Assembly: GCA_041641295.1 (NCBI GenBank)
Contig: JBEPYO010000001.1
Span: 1,472,001-1,536,000, forward strand
Direction: 5' to 3'
Length of the DNA: 64,000 nt
DNA from: Nitrososphaerota archaeon
GTDB lineage: Archaea > Thermoproteota > Nitrososphaeria_A > Caldarchaeales > Calditenuaceae
Shown: in pieces, positions 35,627 to 47,212 of the stretch
Position numbering within the stretch: position 1 is the first letter of the stretch
How the letters are laid out: each line of letters starts with the position of its first letter
Notes under the pieces: model-generated
Databases searched by the model: none
Seen by the model: only the letters and a program-made list of their open reading frames with translations
What the model was told of the DNA's origin: nothing
Translations under genes and position numbers: made by a program

Positions 35627-37318
35627 ATGGCGACAATAATACAGGAGAAAACAAAAGAGGAGTCAAAGCCGGTAGAAAAGCTGGTCACCCGGACAAGAAG
35701 CATCTGCCCAGAGTGCTACCAGGTCCTCCCCGCAGACGTCCTAGAGATCAACGGCAAGATATACATCAAGAAGACCTGCCCCAAGCACGGGGAATTCGAC
35801 GAGCTATACTTCGGCGACGCCGAGATGTATTACAAGTTCGCGAGGTGGCTAAAGGACGGAAAAGGTACTGGAAACCCGGACGTAGAGGCGGCCCGCAGCG
35901 TCTGCCCCTACAACTGCGGCCTATGCAGCTCACACCTAAGCCACACAGGCCTAGCCAACCTAGTCATAACCAATAGATGCGACCTACACTGCTGGTACTG
36001 CTTCTTCTACGCCGAAAAGGCAGGCTACATCTACGAGCCCACACTCGACCAGATTAGAGAGATGGCCCTAAACCTCAGGGCCGAGAGACCAGTCCCCGGC
36101 AACAGCATCCAGATAACAGGCGGCGAGCCAACACTCAGAGACGACCTCCCCGAAATCATAAGAATCCTCAAAGAAGTAGGCGTAGACCACATCCAGCTCA
36201 ACACAAACGGAATAAGACTCTCGCGCGACTTCGAGTACTTCAAGAAGATAAAAGAAGCCGGGGTCAGCAACCTCTACATGAGCTTCGACGGCGTCACGCC
36301 TAGGACAAACCCGAAGAACCACTGGGAAGTCCCAGGCGTCCTAGAAAACGCCAGAAAACTCGGCGTCGGAATAGTCCTAGTCCCAACAGTCATCAAGAGC
36401 GTAAACGACCACGAACTCGGCGACATCATCAGATTCGGATTCAAAAACATCGACGTCGTAAGAGCAGTCAACTTCCAGCCAGTCTCACTCACAGGCAGAA
36501 TGCCCAAGAAAGAGAGAGAAAAATACCGCATCACAATACCAGACTGCATCATCAGGATCGAGGAACAGACAAATGGTGAAATCCCGCGAGACGCATGGTT
36601 CCCAGTACCAGCCTGCACACCCCTAACAAACTTCATAGAAGCCCTAACACGCACACCAAAATACGAGCTAAGCATACACTTCGCATGCGGAGCCGGAACC
36701 TACGTATTCAAAGACGGAGACAAAATGAAACCAATAACAGAATTCGTAGACGTAGAAGGTCTCATCAAATACCTACAGGAAAAAGCAGAAGAAATAGAAA
36801 TGGGCAGAAGCAGAGTCTGGGTAGGAATGAAAGTACTAGCAAACATATCAAAATACATCAGGAAAGAAAAAGAACCCGCGGGAATGAACCTCTCCAGAAT
36901 GCTATTCAACATCATAGTACGACACGACTACTCAAGCGTCGGAGAATGGCACAAAAAATCACTCTTCCTAGGAATGATGCACTTCATGGACCCCTATAAT
37001 CATGATGAAGAGAGGTTGAGGCGTTGTGACATCCACTATCTGACGCCGGATATGAGGATTGTGCCGTTCTGCTCCTTTAACGTTGTGCCCGCGTGGTACA
37101 GGGACAGGATCCAGGCGGTCTACGGCATCTCGATCGAGGAATGGGAGAAGCGGACTGGGAGAAAGCTGGCAGATGACTTTTACAAGCGTAAGCTCCCGGC
37201 AAAGCAGGCGGCGGTGCCCACGGCCTCGACTAAGACCGCTGGCTTCGGAGGCCTAGAATCGGTTCCGGTTATCCAGGGCTGCTCAGGGAAAGAGGATAAC
37301 TGCTGCTGCGGCCAGTAG
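35627..37318 (+). CDS. tes: Tetraether lipid synthase (GDGT-MAS, MJ0619-type radical SAM)
   Basis: TRSICPEC...KTCPKHG, CPYNCGLC..H, radical SAM CDLHCWYC, TGGEP, NTNG, NFQP, HFACG, RCDIHY...PFC. Confidence 0.88.
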   Translation: MATIIQEKTKEESKPVEKLVTRTRSICPECYQVLPADVLEINGKIYIKKTCPKHGEFDELYFGDAEMYYKFARWLKDGKGTGNPDVEAARSVCPYNCGLCSSHLSHTGLANLVITNRCDLHCWYCFFYAEKAGYIYEPTLDQIREMALNLRAERPVPGNSIQITGGEPTLRDDLPEIIRILKEVGVDHIQLNTNGIRLSRDFEYFKKIKEAGVSNLYMSFDGVTPRTNPKNHWEVPGVLENARKLGVGIVLVPTVIKSVNDHELGDIIRFGFKNIDVVRAVNFQPVSLTGRMPKKEREKYRITIPDCIIRIEEQTNGEIPRDAWFPVPACTPLTNFIEALTRTPKYELSIHFACGAGTYVFKDGDKMKPITEFVDVEGLIKYLQEKAEEIEMGRSRVWVGMKVLANISKYIRKEKEPAGMNLSRMLFNIIVRHDYSSVGEWHKKSLFLGMMHFMDPYNHDEERLRRCDIHYLTPDMRIVPFCSFNVVPAWYRDRIQAVYGISIEEWEKRTGRKLADDFYKRKLPAKQAAVPTASTKTAGFGGLESVPVIQGCSGKEDNCCCGQ

Positions 37319-37472
37319 ACTGTACTTTTTCAAAATTTTTAGACTAGGTTAAGCAATTATGTATTTGACCGCATTTTTATTGCTATCACTCTATTATCTT
37401 TACGAACAAGGTGGTTAAAAGCTCCCAAGCCGAGAAGATTTAAATAATTTAGGCAACTACATCTGCTAACTA

Positions 37473-38264
37473 GTGGATATGCCAGAGGATAGGGATGATG
37501 ATAGGATTCTTAGAGTTTTGAAGAAACTGGAAGAAGCTAGGAGGTTGGGCTTGATAGATGAGGAGTTTTATAGGGAGAGGAGGAGAGCTCTGCTATCGAA
37601 GTATTTAGAACTCGCTGAGGAGGAGTTAGGTGGAGATGTGCAGAGGAGCCAGGAACATGGACGGGCTGGCGGGAATAGGAAATGGCTCATCGTATCTATA
37701 ATTGCAGGTCTATTCGCCGTTGGTATTGTGTCCGCATTGTTTGTTCCTACTTTAATAAGACCCCAAACCCACACTACCACGATTTTCGTACAGGAAGTAT
37801 TCACCAAGACAGTAACTAACACACTGATTTATCCTCAGCCATATCAATATACTCAACCTTACCAGTACCTACCAGCAGAAGGTGCAATAGAGAATATAAT
37901 CTATTCCGGATCAGTACATATTGATAGGCAGTGCCGAGTACACCAATTTCCAATAAATGCCAAGAAGGGTGATGTTATAAGGGTCTACTGGGAATCAAAT
38001 GATGATGCCACATATATCGCGATCGGGACTGATGCGGACTATGAGAAAAATGTTCGCGGCTCTTACTGTGAAACTATAATTTCTCTATGGATGTGGAGTT
38101 GGCCTGCAGCAAGCTATGGCTATTCAGGATCGTTAGAATTTACAGTTCCCTCCTCGGGATCTTGGTATGTCTATGTCGCTAACGGGAACTGGGGTTGCAT
38201 ATTATCCAGCTGTCCAATAACTGTTACAAAACTTGAGATCAGACATGTACAGCGAGGAGTATAA
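37473..38264 (+). CDS. Membrane protein: N-terminal SHOCT-like helix pair, single TM, Thr/Pro/Gln/Tyr linker, exported beta-domain
   Basis: LKKLEEARRLGLIDEEFYRERRRALL, TM WLIVSIIAGLFAVGIVSALFV, QPYQYTQPYQY, FTVPSSGSWYVYVAN. Confidence 0.7.
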   Translation: MDMPEDRDDDRILRVLKKLEEARRLGLIDEEFYRERRRALLSKYLELAEEELGGDVQRSQEHGRAGGNRKWLIVSIIAGLFAVGIVSALFVPTLIRPQTHTTTIFVQEVFTKTVTNTLIYPQPYQYTQPYQYLPAEGAIENIIYSGSVHIDRQCRVHQFPINAKKGDVIRVYWESNDDATYIAIGTDADYEKNVRGSYCETIISLWMWSWPAASYGYSGSLEFTVPSSGSWYVYVANGNWGCILSSCPITVTKLEIRHVQRGV

Positions 38265-38680
38265 ACACAATGTATTTCATCGCCTCAAGGAAGGCTAGCT
38301 GAAATAATGAAAACGTGAGTACACGCATATAGTCTTCATAATTGTTCACAAATCTTGCATTTTCCTTTTATCGGTAATCTATCTTTAAGTCTCTTAATTA
38401 TATGTGTATCCAATTCTACAAGTAGGTGATTTTCTTTTTGGGTAGTGTTTGATGCTGAGAATCAAATTCTTTAGGTGTAGAATTAAGCTCTTTGGAATTA
38501 TCAAATTAGTTATGTATTCTTTTGCAGACTTCATTTTATCTATTCTGCCCAATTAGTAGGAAACTTGTCGATAGGAATGTCACATTCCTTGGACAAGGAG
38601 GCAGGTAAAACTATACAGAAGAGCCTCACATCTTCGACTAGCGGAGTTATACTTGTTTCTAATAAAGGGGAAGTTAATTG

Positions 38681-41600
38681 CTAAGTCGTTAATAAGTTAT
38701 TGATTGATTTTTCGATACTATCAAACCAGTATTCCTTACGAAACCTTTCAGGGAGCTTATATACATCGTCTGTGTAAAGATTTAAGTGAACTCTAATATT
38801 AAATCCGTACTCCTGAAACGTCTTAATAGAACCATCCTCATTTCTGAAAATTTTCTCATAACCATCAATTTTATAGCCGAATTCCGTGTGGGATGTTCCT
38901 TTCGGGTCTATGAAGAGTATGTAATAGTCCTCGCCTTTGCATAACCAAAATATGAAGTCTGGCTTAAATTTGCGAAGTGAATTCTGAGAACTGTCGTAAT
39001 ATGGGATATATATCTCATCTAAGTATCCATCTATTTTGCTGAACATCCACCAATCAAATTCTTTTAATAAGTTACTCTCTTTCTTTGAGTAATCAATCAA
39101 ATCTTTAATGAATTTGTGTTCGCTAGGTGTATTAATTATATGGGTTATCCACTCTATCTTTTCCTCTGTCGACAGAAGGGGTAGATAATAGTGTTCGGCT
39201 ATGTAGTATATTCCCAATTTTTTCCCGTCTATAGTAAGAATTTCTTGTTCTGCGTATTTTTTCTCTAATTCATATTTCCTTCTATCATACTCTGTTTGAC
39301 TTATTTTACCATAAAGATTACTCAGCTCCTGTTCTACCACTTTCTTTTCTGGATATTTCCTCACTTTTTCCAATTTTTCTTTAAGTGCATTAAGTCTCAC
39401 CTCATCCAAATACACTCCAATCCTCTTGAAATGAACTATTTCTTCCTCAAGTATTTTAAATCTTTCCAAATCCTCTACACTGACGTTAATATGAGATATC
39501 AGACGAGTAAGGAGTACTGAGGGGGGCAACAACTCACTATTCTCGACGAAATTAAATTTCTCATCATTCCAAATAAATTCTTTAAATCTTATGAGATCAT
39601 CAAAATTTAGACCAGGTTCTGAAAAGTGAAGCATAAGTAAAACTCTGTCATCACCGATCATTTCGATGTATCTTCTAAGCTGCATTAATGATTCTCTATT
39701 TACACTGAATTTTGGGATTTTTTCTGTTGGTACTTTCCTTCTCCCACTGTAATATGGGATCAGCAAGATTACTTCTCCTGTTTTCGGGTTTTTATCCAAC
39801 GAGATTATTTCTCCCAGTCTCATTTTTTCCTCTTTTACTGATGTCATTATTTCTTGGATAATGTTCTTTTTCGTAGCGAAAATAAAAAGAGTTTCCAGAG
39901 GGATAAAGGTTTCTGGGCTGACATTATTGACCAACTCTTTAGCCTCTGGGTCCATCGAAATGCGTAAATAGTTTATCCTCTTTCTCTTGTTTTTCATAGG
40001 CTCTATTCGCGCGCCTCTTCCTATTGATTGTGTGATGAATTTTTTAGCGTCAGTCCCGACTCCTATGTTAATAAAAGTGATTACATTAGGTCTATTCGAG
40101 TCCCACCCTTCATAGAAAGCTCTAGACCCCATCAATATGTTTATGTCGGAGTCGTCTTTGTTTATACTTCTGAAGAAGCTCTCATTTTCCCATCTTTCTA
40201 TTATCTCATATCCTGAGAGAGTCGTTTTTAGCCAATTAGTTATGTCTCCTATTTTGACACTCGCAAAAGGTCTGTCGGATGTTTTTAACTTAAATGCTAA
40301 TTCCTGCCGATTTGATGGCAGTACCAAAACTTCTATGTTTCCGGGAGTTTGTGCGTTGAAAACTTCATATAAAACATCAGTATATGAAATTGTTTTTAAT
40401 TTCTCGGTATTAACTAATAGTCTTTCTGATCCATACACGTAGGGATTCTGTTTTTCAAACTCTTGGATAAGCTCTTCTTTTGCTTTCTCAAATGTCTCAT
40501 ATTTTATCTTTCCCTCAGCTATTTTTTCAAGTTCTTTGAAGAACATTTCTAAGTCGGGCTCTTTACTTGGATCTTTATGGTTGACCGTATGTGTAAGTGT
40601 TAGCATCATTGGTATGTGATAAACATTCTTACCTGTTTTTGCTCTTATATCTTTGTATATTTTTTTAAGATATGTCAAGAGGATTAATGTTTTTAAGACG
40701 ATTTTCTGTTTCTCAGTGCTCGGGTAATCTTCCTTATCTCTGAATGCTTCAAATTCTTGTTCTGATATGTATATATTCTTTCCATAACCCTTTCCTACAT
40801 ATTGCGCAAGGTTAATGTTATATACAGTCGTGTATATGTCTATCTCGTCTGTAAACGTCGCTGAAAAGTTGAAAAGGAAGCCGTTTCTCGACATAATCGA
40901 GTAGAATGCTTGTCTCTTAGATTCTTCTTTGCCGCCTTTATGTGCTTCATCAAGTAAGATATACCATCTTCCAATATTCTCATAATTTCTAAAGTCTATA
41001 TATTTCTCTGTCTCTTCGTCCCATATTAAATCTGACCTGTAGATGAAGACATCTATGGTATTCTCTCCCCTTGGCAAGATCCCACCGTACTTTACTTTAC
41101 TAAAATCTTTCAAGTTCCAAAGCCTGATCTTCAAGTTATTGTATTCATTGTATTCATCTATGTATTCCTTCATTTTCTCAACTAGATCTTCTCGACATGT
41201 CAAAACTAAGATATCGCAAGGAGGAATTTCTCTTCTTTTCATTAAATAATACAGAATCTCAATCAGTTTTACGATGACTAAGGTCTTTCCAGATCCAGTT
41301 GCCATCCAAAAGGACATTCTGTTGATGAGATTTCGATAAGATATTTGCTCTCCTTCGCTTTCAAAATATTCGGATAAGAGCTTGTAAATCGTTTTTTGTT
41401 TTGACTTTCTAATGGCTAAGTGGTGTGATTCTAGTCCTCGCCTTTCATATTCTGCGAAAAGTAATGTTTTTCTCTTTTCGTTAGTTTCTAAGGGCTCCCC
41501 CTCTTTATAGTCTTCCGCGCTTTGATAATAGAAGTAGAGAATCTTGATAGCGTTTTTTAATGCCTCCTCTTGGTAGTCGTAGAGATTCTTGGTCTTGGAG

Positions 41601-41719
41601 AATGAGGTGAAGTTGTTAAATGTTGACCATGAAGGTGGAAGAGAATTGAAATCAATACTATCAGCAATATTTTGGAGTATTACTTTGACTGGCGTGTATC
41701 CCGACATTCTCACCACCAT
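38681..41719 (-). CDS. res: Type III restriction-modification Res subunit (SF2 helicase + PD-(D/E)XK nuclease)
   Basis: YQEEAL, MATGSGKT, LDEAHK, FSAT, EGWD, QSIGRGAR, C-terminal PDF...IDPKG; overlaps mod stop. Confidence 0.9.
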   Translation of the reverse strand: MVVRMSGYTPVKVILQNIADSIDFNSLPPSWSTFNNFTSFSKTKNLYDYQEEALKNAIKILYFYYQSAEDYKEGEPLETNEKRKTLLFAEYERRGLESHHLAIRKSKQKTIYKLLSEYFESEGEQISYRNLINRMSFWMATGSGKTLVIVKLIEILYYLMKRREIPPCDILVLTCREDLVEKMKEYIDEYNEYNNLKIRLWNLKDFSKVKYGGILPRGENTIDVFIYRSDLIWDEETEKYIDFRNYENIGRWYILLDEAHKGGKEESKRQAFYSIMSRNGFLFNFSATFTDEIDIYTTVYNINLAQYVGKGYGKNIYISEQEFEAFRDKEDYPSTEKQKIVLKTLILLTYLKKIYKDIRAKTGKNVYHIPMMLTLTHTVNHKDPSKEPDLEMFFKELEKIAEGKIKYETFEKAKEELIQEFEKQNPYVYGSERLLVNTEKLKTISYTDVLYEVFNAQTPGNIEVLVLPSNRQELAFKLKTSDRPFASVKIGDITNWLKTTLSGYEIIERWENESFFRSINKDDSDINILMGSRAFYEGWDSNRPNVITFINIGVGTDAKKFITQSIGRGARIEPMKNKRKRINYLRISMDPEAKELVNNVSPETFIPLETLFIFATKKNIIQEIMTSVKEEKMRLGEIISLDKNPKTGEVILLIPYYSGRRKVPTEKIPKFSVNRESLMQLRRYIEMIGDDRVLLMLHFSEPGLNFDDLIRFKEFIWNDEKFNFVENSELLPPSVLLTRLISHINVSVEDLERFKILEEEIVHFKRIGVYLDEVRLNALKEKLEKVRKYPEKKVVEQELSNLYGKISQTEYDRRKYELEKKYAEQEILTIDGKKLGIYYIAEHYYLPLLSTEEKIEWITHIINTPSEHKFIKDLIDYSKKESNLLKEFDWWMFSKIDGYLDEIYIPYYDSSQNSLRKFKPDFIFWLCKGEDYYILFIDPKGTSHTEFGYKIDGYEKIFRNEDGSIKTFQEYGFNIRVHLNLYTDDVYKLPERFRKEYWFDSIEKSINNLLTT

Positions 41720-44206
41720 ATTAGGGGTTTAATCAATTTCCAGTCTAAATTCCCTAGGTCTATAACTTCCCCATCCTCAAACTCTACCTCTTTTCTTGTC
41801 AACCTTTTTATCCATTTCCCTTTTAGGTTTGATATGGTTTCAGCAATATCTATGTTTGGATAAAGTTTCGAGAGGTCAACTTTAACGGTTTTATTGTTGT
41901 AATCTATCTCTAATGCGCGTAGCATTTTTTCATCTTTTAGGAAAACATAGTGGGAATAAATTTCGCTAGAGGTCCAGTCAACGAAGGGGTGAGTATCCTT
42001 ATAGACTGCTCTATCTAGCGTTTGCTCATATTGCTCCAATTCATAATACTTAAAGAAACCGCTACCCTCCCAATTGATATTTCTACTTATTCCTGACTTC
42101 TCTCCTGCCAGAACCTTCTTCATACGCGGTAGGACGATTGTCCAGAAATGTTCACCCATTTCGACACCAATCCATTTTCTCCTTAACTTATGGGCAACTG
42201 CTGTCGCAGTACCAGAACCTAAAAAGAAGTCCATAACTAAATCACCTTCTTTAGATGTAGCCTCAAACACACGTTGAATAAGTTGCTCAGCATTTCTTGT
42301 TGGAAAGTCTGGGTCTTGTGAGTAACTTTGTATATTCGTCCAATTAGAATCAACCTTTTTAGGTGGATTTTTTATTTCGGGAACAAAATCATTTTCTCCA
42401 CACTTAGGACATTTGTCCCACAAACCTTCATAATGCTCATATCCGCAGATTTTGCATCTAAACCTTATGAGCTTTTTAGATATATATTTATCTATTAAAT
42501 CTTGTTTAATCCCCCAATGTCTTCCTAATGGAGGATATAACTTTATACCGAAAACCTCTCTCCAGTTCCTATCCTGATTCCTAACTCCTGGATAATGGAC
42601 AAAAGGTTGCCAATCAGTTTCTCTCTCTTCATATAATTCGTAAAACAAACACTGTTCCTTATTTTTGGCATAGAAAAATAGGCTCTCTGTAGCGTCAAGA
42701 AATTTGCGCTTTGCTTCTTTTTGAATTCCAGACGTCTTTATCACTATTTCATTTTGGAAATTTTCTTCCCCAAAAATTTCGTTCATTAAAAGTCTAACGT
42801 ACATGTTACCGTTATCATCGCATCTCACAAAAATGCTTCCTGTATCTTTTAAAATGTGCCTTGCTAGCTGCAATCTATTCTCAAGCATTGTTATCCATGT
42901 AGAATCCTTATATTTCACATGGTAGTAGTAGTCAGCGTCCTGCTCCTTATTAAATGGTGGATCTATGTAAATTGTCTGAACTTTTCCTCTGAATTTTGGT
43001 AAAATTGTATTTAATGCTTGCCAGTTTTCACTTTTAATCAACCAGCCATCTAAAACCTTATCAAGCTCGTTATTCTCAGAAATTTTTTCTATTAACTTCC
43101 ATTTAAATTCATGATCAAAGTATTTAGTATCTATGGGTAGTTTTTTTCCACTCCTTTCCTTGAAGGCTATTTGTTTCGATAAGGTCTGAAATACCCCTAA
43201 TCTCAACTCCCAACAACTCTCTCCATTCTCGTAGCTGCTCTTCATTAGCTAAAACTTTAGGAATAACGTAGTTTTCCAAAAAATCTTCTCCACACAGTTC
43301 CTTTATTCTATCTAGTGTTATTACATATTCGCTATTTAGGACAAATTTGGGTTTCTCCCATATTTTTCGCAGTTCATCTTCAAACTGGGAAATGAAATCT
43401 ATGATTTTAAACGCTATCGTCTTAAGCGCCTTCAACTCTTTCAATCTTTTCTCACTAAACTCGCTCTCTTCGTCCATTATGTAATGTCTAAGCCAAATCT
43501 CAAACTGCTCTTTTAAGAAAGCATTTGCATCTTTATTAATGAAGTAATCCACCTCGCTCTGTCTCTCAAATATTTTAAATGCCTTTTCAAGAACCTCTTC
43601 TGTGATTCTTCGGTCCTTTAATCTCCTTAAAATCTCTTCGATTTTGGTCTCCCTCCCTCTCTCAGAATAAATTACTTGGAAATGAATTGTCCCATCATCA
43701 CTTACGTCCTTCAATTCGTAGATTATTTTTCTCTTTTCATAAGCCTTTCTATGCTCCACCTCAGAAGCATCAAAGAAGAACTTAAAAGCATCGACTTCCA
43801 CACTCATACTCTTATAAATACGGTCAGTCTTAACATAGTAAAGGTCTCGAGTCTTCCAGAATAAAGCGACATCCTTATCTGTATAAACTCTAGCCCAAAC
43901 ATTCTCCTGGAGAGGTGTGAAGACAAAATGAATTGAGCCACTCTCACTAAAGTATCGCTTAAAGAAATTATAGAGTTTATCAAAAAGCTCTTCCCTGAAC
44001 TCAGGAAATTCTTCAAGGGTTTCCTCAACCACTTTTCTGAGAATTGACAAGAAAGACCTAAAATACGAAGATTTAATCCTCATCAAGTTTATGAAGCCAG
44101 ATTTCCCTTCTATGTTTGCACCGATAAAAATATTCTCCAAAATATTAAAGAACATTCTCTCTTTTTCACCCATCCCTCCAGAAGCGATCTCATCAACTTT
44201 ACTCAT
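41710..44206 (-). pseudogene. mod: Type III R-M Mod (N6-adenine methyltransferase), split by a frameshift at an A7 tract (43141-43147)
   Basis: ORFs 43124-44221 and 41710-43245 fuse to ...EWKKLPIDTKYF... if one A is removed; C-half has DPPF and FFLGSGTA in beta-class order. Confidence 0.85.
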
Positions 44207-44526
44207 TACCCACACCTCCAACTCTAATTCCGTTAAAATAGATTCCTAATTGCGCCACTCTTTCAGAAATACCTCGCTTTACATAATTTGGGAGAATTAT
44301 TACCTTAATTATAAGGCTCTTTATCAGCCTGCCTTTCCTTAATAACCTTGGCATACCATGTATTTGACCCTTCCCATTTGTCATGTTTATTACTAGTATG
44401 CGCCTTTTGGGTTATATATTTTTGCTTTGGCAGAGGGATTTAGTTGCGAGAGGATGGTTTGAATGGTTGAGTTGCATGAAATGTTGTTTGGAGCTACTGT
44501 TTTCGGTGGATTATTGACGGCTAAGA

Positions 44527-44760
44527 TTGGGCTATTTCAATATAGGCGCTCAATTACCTATAGAAAGGCTTGGTGGCTCAACTCTCTATCACGACTTCTA
44601 TGTGAAGCTCCACTTGATGAACATCAGAGAGCAAACGGGCTCTGAAGAGGTGACGAGCATGATTGAACGGATAATTCAGAAGGAAGTAAGAGGAGAAATG
44701 CTGACTGACGAAGAATATAGGCTTCTTACGGAATTTACAGACTATCTAAATTTCTTCTAG
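44527..44760 (+). CDS. Short hypothetical ORF or gene remnant
   Basis: Plausible helical C-terminus (IIQKEVRGEMLTDEEYRLL); weak TTG start; in-frame TGA at 44515. Confidence 0.3.
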   Translation: MGYFNIGAQLPIERLGGSTLYHDFYVKLHLMNIREQTGSEEVTSMIERIIQKEVRGEMLTDEEYRLLTEFTDYLNFF

Positions 44761-45140
44761 TTGATAAAATATTTGTATACGGTGCGTTGAAGATGAGGGA
44801 TATCCTTTCAAGGTTGGTGGCCGGCAAGGAGGCAAGGTATGTTGGGAGTGGTAGGGTCCGGGGGAAACTATATAATTTGGGTGAGTATCCTGGGGCCGTT
44901 GAGGACGATGTGGGCTTCGTATACGGTGACGTATATGAGATCTCAAACATGGATGAAGTTCTGCCGCGGTTAGATGAGTATGAAGGTTTTAATCGGGACA
45001 AGCGCGAAGAAAGTCTATTCATAAGGAAGGTTATAGAAGTATTCATGGATGACGGAAGCACCTTAAAGGCATCCGTCTACATATACAATGGTAGGGTTAG
45101 AGAAGAGGACCTGATACCAGATGGCGTTTGGAAAGTGTGA
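44760..45140 (+). CDS. Gamma-glutamylcyclotransferase (AIG2-like) family protein; start codon unclear
   Basis: IFVYGALK (upstream of TTG 44787), GKLYNLGEYPG, VYGDVY, LDEYEG, YIYN...I.DG.W. Confidence 0.8.
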   Translation, partial: VDKIFVYGALKMRDILSRLVAGKEARYVGSGRVRGKLYNLGEYPGAVEDDVGFVYGDVYEISNMDEVLPRLDEYEGFNRDKREESLFIRKVIEVFMDDGSTLKASVYIYNGRVREEDLIPDGVWKV

Positions 45141-45274
45141 AGGTTCAGTTTAATCCCCTATTCCTTATATGCAGCGTATCAATAGGTAGTGGAAGGAGAT
45201 GGGTAGATAACCGAGATACTAGTTTTTCATGCATCCGAAACGCTTTTAAGCCATAATCGCTTAGCTCATCTGAG

Positions 45275-46329
45275 ATGATAAAATCTGAGATAAAGAGCTC
45301 TTTGTTGGAATTTGCGAGGCGGCTGCTTGACTCGCCTCAGTTTAGAGAGGAAGTTGAAAAAGATAGGAGGGTCTTGAGAGAGTTTATTGAGCGTTTCCCC
45401 TTCAGGAAGAATCCCTCACTTATAGACGAGTTAACTCCTGAAAAGTTGTATAATCCGGGAAAATCGCGCGAGTGGTTCTTCTATTTCTTTGAATTCTATT
45501 TGAGACGCGTTGGAACTATAGCCATACATGGTGATAAACCGTGGCGCGAGGCGTGTAGTAAAATAGACATATTTAAACAACTGTTAAAACTAGTTGTTGA
45601 CGACTCTAAATCTATTCATGAAAGGATTGATGATGAGCGGTGGAGCCAGCTCAAAGGCTGGGGAGGTGACAAACATTGTGTCAAAAAAAGCTATTCGTCT
45701 ATTATCCAGAAAAACTGCTACCCACTTTTAAGACCGAACTGTTAGAAAACCAACTTAATGGCCTTGGGCTGAGAGATAAAGCCGAAATTGAGGCGCAGAG
45801 AAGATTTAATGAGAAACTTGAAAACCTCACGGTGGGCAAAAAATTCGAGATATATAATGAAATATTGATCGACTCTGTCCAGAGTGTATTGACGCGCGAC
45901 TATGAATGGGATACTTGTGCTATTGCGAGGCTTCTGGGCGAGTTCATTCCATCACCTAGGCCGATAATAAGTCGTAAGTCGGTTGAAAGCCCCTCACCTT
46001 TATCTAAAGTTCCCATGCTTTATGAGCCCGTCAATGAGCTCGGTGTAGTTCTCCTATTTGGCATGTATCACAGAGAGCTAGGATTTCCATACATAATTAA
46101 GGTTCAGCAGTCTTTTCCAGATATGATTGCCCTTGACGAAGAGGGTGACTATTGCCGAATAGAGTTTGAGTATAAATCATCATCCTTCATACAGCACGGA
46201 CACGACCCCGACGGTTGCGACTACATTGTCTGCTGGATAGACGACCTAGACGACCAATCACCCCTAAAAGAGAAGACAATATCCTTACGAGAGGAGATAT
46301 TTGAAGGTCAAGAAAACGAGCCAGAGTAA
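45275..46329 (+). pseudogene. Putative PD-(D/E)XK endonuclease with N-terminal helical recognition domain, split by a frameshift at an A7 tract (45683-45689)
   Basis: ORFs 45275-45745 and 45676-46329 fuse if one A is added; C-terminus YEPVNELGVV.LF...FPD...RIEFEYKS..F..HGHD...CD.IVCW. Confidence 0.72.
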
Positions 46330-46392
46330 TCATTCGTGGAATTATGAAGAGTAGGATGTCTGGATTGGTGGGTTCAAATTCCACCTCTGGCG
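46320..46392 (+). pseudogene. Degenerate tRNA / tRNA-like element
   Basis: GCCAGAG (46320-26) pairs 7/7 with CTCTGGC (46385-91); U8-A9; T arm GTGGG-TTCAAAT-TCCAC at canonical positions 49-65; G73; D and anticodon arms do not pair. Confidence 0.6.
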
Positions 46393-46534
46393 TGCAATTT
46401 AGAAATCCAAAAATATTATAGTCCTTTGACGAACTTCTACAAAAAAATATAGGTAAGACTTACACAGTTTGGCTTACTTTCATAGGTGAGGAAGAAATAG
46501 GGGCTGTGCAGCTTACTTGAACGAATTATTACCT

Positions 46535-47005
46535 TCAGCTTTTCCGGATAAATGTTCCCTCTAGTATATATTCCACGTTATCGTTGAGCGTAGCTACCAA
46601 TTTAATAAAAACTTCTTTGTCACTTATCCATTTGATATCGATATTTTCTCTGAACTTTTTTCCTTCACGCTCGCTCTCATGAATAAGTTGTATGTGATTC
46701 TCCTCTACTAACTCTGCTATGTGATCATGTGTGGTGCCAAGATTATCTACTGAGAACCAGTGAAGCTTTCCGTCGAAGGGATCGTATCCTATGATGTTCC
46801 CTCCATCAAGTCTCATAACGCCCGGAATTTCTGCATTTTCCTCCATGTAAAGACCATTACCGTCAGCTATTTTCCGGAAATTCATAAAATACTTAAAATT
46901 ATAAGATTTGTCACCCATCTGCATGTGTGCTTTAGCTTCCCATTTACCTTCAAGCGTAAGAACTTTGTTTAGGATTTCAGGCAATATATCCATTGTTTCC
47001 CCCAT
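46535..47005 (-). CDS. Beta-barrel protein, DUF1579-like
   Basis: LEGKW near N-terminus, GYDP...LHWFSVDNLG; likely start ATG 47005 or 46993 rather than 47128. Confidence 0.6.
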   Translation of the reverse strand: MGETMDILPEILNKVLTLEGKWEAKAHMQMGDKSYNFKYFMNFRKIADGNGLYMEENAEIPGVMRLDGGNIIGYDPFDGKLHWFSVDNLGTTHDHIAELVEENHIQLIHESEREGKKFRENIDIKWISDKEVFIKLVATLNDNVEYILEGTFIRKS

Positions 47006-47212
47006 TAGTTTACTCTGTGGAATATAAGTTTGTTCTAGGGACGCTGATGGTGAGGGGGAGCCAGCCCTCATGCTATATAAAATACTCGCATTATTTAAAT
47101 ATGGACTGAAATAATGGCATCGACGCAAATTCGCAGAGTTCTAAAGGAGGGTTTTTTGATATCTGTTGTGTAGCCCATAAACGATTATTTACCGCTGCTT
47201 CACACAGAAGAT

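Follow-up and report, generated by a model that had tools for sequence, protein, structure and literature searches.

The locus lies in a window of 64 kb (the whole stretch of DNA that was analysed) of an archaeal genome of 1.56 Mb and 52.5% GC, whose closest public relatives are metagenome-assembled genomes of Thermoproteota/Nitrososphaerota from hot springs, including Candidatus Terraquivivens. Between about 37 and 47 kb of the window, the GC content falls to 0.34-0.46, against about 0.53 in the surrounding DNA, and a comparison with five genomes of the same genus places the left end of homology near 37300 and its restart on the right at 47174. The resulting variable island of about 10 kb carries a Type III restriction-modification system, a gene for a GGACT-family protein, a probable nuclease gene and a DUF1579 gene. 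A 73-nt tRNA-like element overlaps the stop codon of the probable nuclease gene. The features are listed below in window coordinates.

37300..47170, no strand: low-GC variable island, delimited by composition, homology ends and gene content
38681..41719, minus strand: Type III restriction subunit, res (Pfam ResIII, 2.3e-15; PADLOC REase_III, 1e-23)
41710..44221, minus strand: Type III methyltransferase, mod (PADLOC PDLC03638), split at a 7-base homopolymer near 43141
44787-45140: GGACT-family protein gene
45275..46329, plus strand: probable PD-(D/E)xK nuclease gene, split
46320..46392, plus strand: 73-nt composite tRNA-like element, defined by its sequence and as the sole non-tRNA match of a strict top-half scan
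46320..46335, plus strand: 5' acceptor strand GCCAGAG, stop TAA and TCATTC, identified as nuclease coding tail and 3' UTR by the 83%-identical cassette in genomes G004/G007
46336..46361, plus strand: middle segment with no detectable tRNA ancestry, starting at the homology breakpoint
46336..46343, plus strand: GTGGAATT, left arm of an 8-bp inverted repeat predicted to compete with the T stem (MFE and base-pair probabilities)
46362..46392, plus strand: 3' fragment assigned to a tRNA by alignment, with the end of the variable region, a T arm with T61, the 3' strand of the acceptor and a discriminator G
46377..46384, plus strand: AATTCCAC, right arm of the same inverted repeat, made of the end of the T loop and the 3' strand of the T stem (MFE and base-pair probabilities)
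46535-47128, minus strand: DUF1579 gene

The element is inside the island, about 780 nt from its right end, and not at the very edge, the DUF1579 gene being placed between the tRNA fragment and the conserved flank. The DUF1579 gene is itself sporadic and occurs in 3 of the 76 genomes of the class, this one included. A Pfam scan, which covered the 21 ORFs between 33270 and 52636, revealed no recombinase or integrase family among them. Likewise, the 64-kb window contains neither a complete tRNA nor a direct repeat that could be the partner of the fragment, and the closest host tRNA whose T arm resembles that of the fragment is located outside the window, at a distance of about 59 kb. The features that usually betray an integration scar (partner tRNA, direct repeat and integrase) are missing in the window, and this speaks against a textbook scar.

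We also noticed that the mod gene is split at a run of seven A (window 43135-43141), with positions 3-331 of the PADLOC PDLC03638 profile matching 43124-44221 and positions 353-816 matching 41710-43245. At 43141, contigs assembled from two runs of one study have one base fewer while a third run agrees with the window, and the mod frame is open for 836 codons once one base is taken out. This difference would be an ON/OFF length polymorphism like those that underlie phase variation in bacterial Type III mod genes, unless one of the data sets contains an assembly error. As for the tRNA genes of the host, many of them have introns (for example C1:28571-28701, 820577-820684 and 1458920-1459027). 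ARAGORN lists 35 of them without intron search and 48 with it, tRNA-Gln being absent from both lists.

The gene overlapped by the element lacks one nucleotide next to an A7 run (45684-45690), as seen against the homologous loci L017, L018 and L019, and this deletion splits it into the ORFs 45275-45745 and 45676-46329. The public runs listed as matching 45200-46700 were three DNA sets belonging to two studies, and no RNA set. Their contigs contain no indel at this frameshift and do not differ from the window in the element, bearing in mind that the three runs are not independent since all of them may be source samples. The frameshift site reads GTC AAA AAA AGC, where the frame would be regained by a -1 slip or by one extra A added in transcription. 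Homologues with an unbroken gene have about 345 aa, and 139 proteins were found at E<=0.001. The original prediction had called the gene a nuclease. No sequence match to it was found in Pfam, PADLOC or the PDB, and its C-terminal domain is common to proteins with HNH_repeat or EVE domains. The AlphaFold model of the C-terminal ORF (pLDDT 87) displays an alpha-beta-beta-beta-alpha-beta core (residues 121-188), and its best structural matches are all PD-(D/E)xK nucleases, namely NucS (2vld, Z 6.2, rmsd 3.2 and 86 aligned residues) followed by VRR_NUC (4qbn) and AF1548 (1y88) at Z 5.1, all below the caution level of the tool (Z 8) and with Foldseek E-values of 0.1 or worse. In addition, D149, E163 and F164 are invariant in 25 sequences. 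The name is thus in line with the predicted fold but goes further than the modest scores and the missing Pfam family allow, and because of these modest structural scores we consider the overlapped gene as a probable PD-(D/E)xK nuclease.

The nuclease gene is patchily distributed, with 4 of the 19 genomes of the family carrying it, this one included. Its nearest homologues adjoin tRNA genes: L017 and L018 are 243 nt from a tRNA-Leu-like gene and L020 is 193 nt from a tRNA-Lys gene. A nuclease adjoining tRNA genes would fit the cargo of tRNA-targeted islands. When L017/L018 are counted as one, a tRNA gene or fragment adjoins three of the four nearest nuclease loci (this window, L017/L018 and L020), the exception being L019, which has no tRNA within its 4.6-kb contig.

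The original prediction described the element as tRNA-like with an intact top half, and everything that it said about the sequence holds. The stretch 46320-46392 comprises 73 nt with a G at position 73; GCCAGAG (46320-26) pairs with CTCTGGC (46385-91) in a perfect 7-bp acceptor; the T arm GTGGG-TTCAAAT-TCCAC sits at positions 49-65; TAA (46327-29) falls at positions 8-10 and is the stop of ORF 45676-46329; and the D and anticodon stems (positions 10-13/22-25 and 27-31/39-43) are unpaired. The element thereby has a 7-bp acceptor stem and a T loop TTCRANN at canonical spacing. We scanned the whole genome on both strands with strict rules for such a top half (an acceptor of 7 Watson-Crick pairs, a T stem of 5 bp in which a single G-T pair was tolerated, a TTCRANN loop and a length of 68-96 nt) and obtained 35 matches, that is 34 real tRNAs, all of them (34/34) also in the RF00005 list for the genome, plus this element. 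As a pattern, it is more than chance. To call the top half "intact" is nevertheless an overstatement, as the pair 53-61 is G-T; in addition, the T stem has a predicted probability of 0.057. The G53-C61 pair is near-invariant in tRNA; position 61 is C in 34/34 host tRNAs and in 53/53 relatives from outside the host, and T in the element.

The tRNA detectors did not report the element as a tRNA. ARAGORN found no gene in the 64-kb window with default settings and nothing in its mitochondrial modes. Rfam searches of 1.1 kb and of 101 nt containing the element gave no tRNA match at E<=10, and at the gathering score Rfam returned nothing in the whole window. When RF00005 (gathering score 29 bits) was run on the whole genome, its list at E<=10 comprised 47 matches, of which 44 exceeded the cut-off and the weakest scored 14.6 bits; the element is absent from it. 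The T arm gave the sole related Rfam match, a local one to tmRNA with 3.7 bits. Only when its threshold was lowered to 80% did ARAGORN call the element, with a 6-nt loop and a 2-nt "anticodon"; since the same threshold produces 924 "tRNAs" on the main contig, this call is meaningless. The covariance-model check suggested in the original prediction was thus negative, neither Rfam nor RF00005 giving a tRNA signal at the element. Matches to the archaeal C/D-box sRNAs sR20, sR30 and sR23 reached 7-10 bits against cut-offs of 38-45 and were discarded as noise. We also rejected a split-tRNA half or a missing host tRNA, as the GC-poor acceptor and T61 are unlike all host tRNAs and no tRNA model gives a score. 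The element is a composite, not a tRNA.

We then considered the predicted folding. In isolation, the acceptor helix is predicted with a probability of at least 0.95, and the weakly predicted T stem is opposed by a competing helix between GUGGAAUU (46336-43) and AAUUCCAC (46377-84) with a probability of 0.91. The T at 46380 (position 61) lengthens the complementarity of GTGGAATT and AATTCCAC. A structure restricted to the top half reaches -14.8 kcal/mol versus -24.1 kcal/mol for the MFE structure, the latter having a z-score of -2.45 and being equalled in stability by 3 of 200 shuffled sequences. In a context of 211 nt, the T stem is predicted at 0.57 and the acceptor falls to 0.44, in a prediction that ignores tertiary contacts.

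The history of the 5' part could be followed through two genomes of the same genus, G004 and G007 (loci L017 and L018), that have the nuclease gene at another chromosomal place. Window positions 45226-46335 match them with 83% identity, and the match stops exactly at 46335. There, the tail of the gene reads GAG CTT GAG TAA TCATTC, so that GCTTGAG-TAA-TCATTC corresponds to the segment beginning with GCCAGAG in the element, and it is followed by unrelated DNA with nothing tRNA-like behind. Among distant homologues, L020 ends in ...TCAGAGTAA (GAA TCA GAG TAA) and L019 in ...CCTGAACCTTAA (GAA CCT GAA CCT TAA). At the protein level, the tails have the form E-x-E-P/S/L-E, and the distant ones keep Glu-x-Glu with synonymous changes. 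These alignments show that the first 16 nt of the element descend from nuclease sequence. GCCAGAG therefore represents an inherited, weakly conserved acidic tail that did not arise for pairing. What the window and L017/L018 have in common (83%) is the nuclease gene alone, with 49 nt upstream and 6 nt downstream; a single gene common to different chromosomal contexts suggests that it may move as a one-gene cassette.

If the whole structure served the gene, it might be expected beside other nucleases, as the original prediction had pointed out. Within -60 to +200 nt of the stop codon, none of 45 homologous nuclease loci combines a 7-bp acceptor with a T arm, and the sister genomes G004 and G007 lack the element. 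Under relaxed rules, 10 of the 45 loci gave AT-rich noise, none with 7 Watson-Crick acceptor pairs.

The 3' part has a different history. About 25-31 nt at the 3' end of the element are tRNA-derived, 24 of 25 positions matching bacterial or phage tRNA-Leu/Thr genes; in other words, the last 25 nt differ from these outside tRNAs at one position, plus the discriminator. The 21-mer GGTTCAAATYCCACCTCTGGC was found at 53 loci, 2 viral and 51 from metagenomes (a single scan with a T-arm/acceptor pattern), with C at Y in all of them. Full tRNAs starting with GCCAG[AGT]G account for 49 of the 53, and represent 32 distinct sequences, mostly tRNA-Leu and tRNA-Thr. Since three loci (L083, L088 and L108) are 3'-only fragments of the same GGTTCAAATYCCACCTCTGGC tRNA end, such 3' scars do exist. 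Together, these matches show, by sequence similarity, that the 3' part is of tRNA origin. Allowing one mismatch at most, the 21-mer is absent from the 75 other genomes of the class. The comparison with the tRNAs of the host, also foreseen in the original prediction, gave a mixed answer: the T arm agrees at 17 of 18 positions with six host tRNA-Pro/Leu genes, but no host tRNA has the acceptor of the element. A foreign origin would cost one substitution (C61 to T), against five for the 3' end of a host tRNA-Leu, of which 20 of 25 positions would be kept. The fragment would accordingly have a foreign source or else descend, with more decay, from the 3' end of a host tRNA-Leu/Pro.

Between these two parts, positions 10-48 (39 nt) were compared with the middles of the 32 distinct tRNAs that have the same top half, and 248 of 300 shuffled sequences scored as well. 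On this comparison, the 39-nt middle is not tRNA-like. No viral contig contained the 22-mer made of fragment plus trailer or the 26-mer of the middle. When 46300-46540 was compared with 401 genomes of the phylum (own included), the matches were almost all T arms of real tRNAs. One other match joins 46336-46364 to L120:1501-1529 with 27 of 29 nt identical. It falls within the gene for a membrane protein in G041, a genome from a different family within the same order, and encodes there, on the minus strand, the peptide PDILLFIIP. Neither of the two mismatches changes the protein sequence of that gene, there is no synteny, and the membrane protein has no homologue in the host genome. Other non-tRNA matches of like strength are present in the same comparison, and the match to G041 is probably due to chance. 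The same L120 contains at 2220-2999 an ORF of LAGLIDADG type, a label given by reading of its translation alone, whose C-terminal part runs over a T-arm-like GGGTTCAAAT at 2301-2310; it may be a homing endonuclease associated with a tRNA gene. Regarding the junction itself, an insertion of the nuclease cassette into a tRNA gene was rejected, as no tRNA 5' piece lies beside the left junction near 45226. Among the mechanisms considered (e.g. microhomology capture or cassette insertion into a tRNA), none was found that fits both the shared TCATTC and the non-tRNA middle.

Taking all our observations together, we favour, with a probability of roughly 70%, a chance composite in which a tRNA 3' fragment became attached to the tail of a mobile nuclease gene that is itself broken, the acceptor pairing being fortuitous and the element as such serving no function. 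We would probably be dealing with an ordinary scar rather than a new RNA device. The first piece (46320-46335) is the inherited end of a mobile and patchy nuclease cassette, comprising the final Glu-Pro-Glu codons, TAA and 6 nt of 3' UTR. The second (about 46362-46392) is a tRNA 3' end, which would have been left at the island border by an integrating mobile element or by captured foreign DNA. A rearrangement with its breakpoint at 46335/46336 would have joined both pieces, so that by luck the coding tail GCCAGAG came to complement CTCTGGC at a tRNA-like distance. We infer that an integration or recombination event left the fragment behind as a scar, and that chance brought about its pairing with the coding tail. 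Of the two readings offered in the original prediction, the decayed att/tRNA scar thereby survives for the 3' part, which is tRNA-derived and near the edge of the low-GC island, but not for the 5' strand, which is inherited nuclease coding sequence.

The chance of such fortuitous pairing is about 0.1-0.3% per fragment: GCCAGAG has a frequency of 9.4e-5 per position, and the expectation is about 1e-4 at the exact spacing of 73 nt and 2.5e-3 over 27 tRNA-like spacings. Such pairing is improbable for a single fragment, and this counts against chance. However, such a value becomes unremarkable when very many windows are scanned, because attention then goes to whichever coincidence looks most like a tRNA; the reading as chance thus depends on the size of the scan that brought up the element. 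T8-A9 are likewise shared with genuine tRNA-Thr genes of this 3' end, but any TAA (or TAG) stop at this place would bring these two bases along.

Other explanations were weighed against this chance composite. The acceptor helix together with GTGGAATT/AATTCCAC could form a hairpin that stabilises the 3' end of the mRNA, or that is the footprint of a fold-back or template switch by which the junction at 46336 was made. The low MFE, with few shuffles as stable, argues for such a hairpin, as does the left arm of the 8-bp repeat, which starts exactly at the breakpoint 46336. The z-score is modest, though, and nothing of the structure is conserved elsewhere; moreover, archaeal termination is generally known to rely on T-runs and not on hairpins. 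We regard this explanation as unlikely. Slightly less credible is a whole foreign tRNA gene that decayed in its D and anticodon arms after the nuclease ORF had come to end in its 5' end. It would account for the total of 73 nt, for the T at position 33 and for the fact that tRNA-Thr genes with this 3' end begin with GCCAGAGTA, identical to positions 1-9. Yet in G004/G007 the nuclease gene ends in a stretch that is homologous to positions 1-16 and has no tRNA behind it, the Glu-x-Glu tail is kept at the protein level in distant homologues, the middle has no residual tRNA similarity, and neutral decay that erased 39 nt would not have spared 31 of the 32 bases of the top half.

The reading that would matter most is a functional t-element, the retained element or "safety catch" of the original prediction. 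RNase P, tRNase Z and the CCA enzyme would recognise the minihelix, and processing would set the 3' end of the nuclease mRNA, remove its stop codon or release a decoy RNA. A perfect 7-bp acceptor at the exact length of a tRNA, unlikely by chance, and the firmly predicted acceptor helix speak for it, and there are precedents in plant mitochondria (PMC1920247) and Haloferax (PMC6546412). Nevertheless, no tRNA model gives a score, G53-C61 is replaced by G-T with the T stem losing to the competing helix, the element is missing from all 45 homologous loci, and its 5' strand is an older coding sequence that was not built for pairing. Furthermore, all three assemblies have the frameshift that disrupts the nuclease ORF farther upstream, and because of it a brake would have nothing to act on here. 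We consider a t-element very improbable, the safety catch having found no backing in the covariance models, the homologous loci or the state of the gene. Its more specific form, in which the captured tRNA 3' fragment and the tail of the defence nuclease would make up a processed minihelix, with the mRNA losing its stop or gaining a defined 3' end, we hold to be more improbable still.

If the t-element reading were true, an archaeon would here provide the first natural case of a tRNA-like processing signal that overlaps the stop codon of a defence gene. It would be an archaeal counterpart of the plant mitochondrial t-elements, acting on a defence gene, and as such of real interest to the study of RNA processing and of how toxic nucleases are controlled. 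Plant mitochondrial t-elements shape mRNA ends (PMC1920247), and in Haloferax, t-elements that resemble tRNAs serve as substrates of RNase P and RNase Z (PMC6546412). Like the plant mitochondrial and the engineered Haloferax ones, the element presents an acceptor/T-arm shape by a coding region and would in principle be a substrate of RNase P and tRNase Z. Unlike those t-elements, which are processed and whose ends are mapped, it is known from sequence alone, is unconserved, has a mutated G53-C61 pair and is predicted to form a competing helix.

Another parallel is offered by archaeal integrases of the SSV type, in which, as reported in PMC7253208, the att site, a tRNA fragment, lies inside the coding sequence of the integrase itself. 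In both cases, a tRNA-gene-like sequence overlaps the coding frame of a mobile-element gene. Unlike in PMC7253208, the overlapped gene is PD-(D/E)xK-like and not a tyrosine recombinase, and the overlap is just 10 nt and not tRNA-derived.

The closest comparison is with the partial tRNA genes, or att-type scars, of archaea and bacteria that derive from the integration of elements or from the capture of foreign DNA; in archaea, partial genes composed of a T arm and one acceptor strand are documented (PMC9897764). Our element differs from what is described there in that the 64-kb window yielded neither a partner tRNA of full length nor a direct repeat or an integrase, in that the fragment matches no tRNA of the host class, and in the fortuitous upstream complement that gives it the look of a full-length tRNA. 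Like the partial tRNA genes of PMC9897764, it has a T arm and one acceptor strand while the rest of the tRNA gene is absent, it lies at the border of acquired and compositionally deviant DNA, and it mimics a tRNA to the eye and to lenient predictors. The case is also a warning that a tRNA 3' fragment with a fortuitous upstream partner can pass for a whole tRNA-like element. The feature is of a known and ordinary kind, namely a partial tRNA gene at the border of an island.
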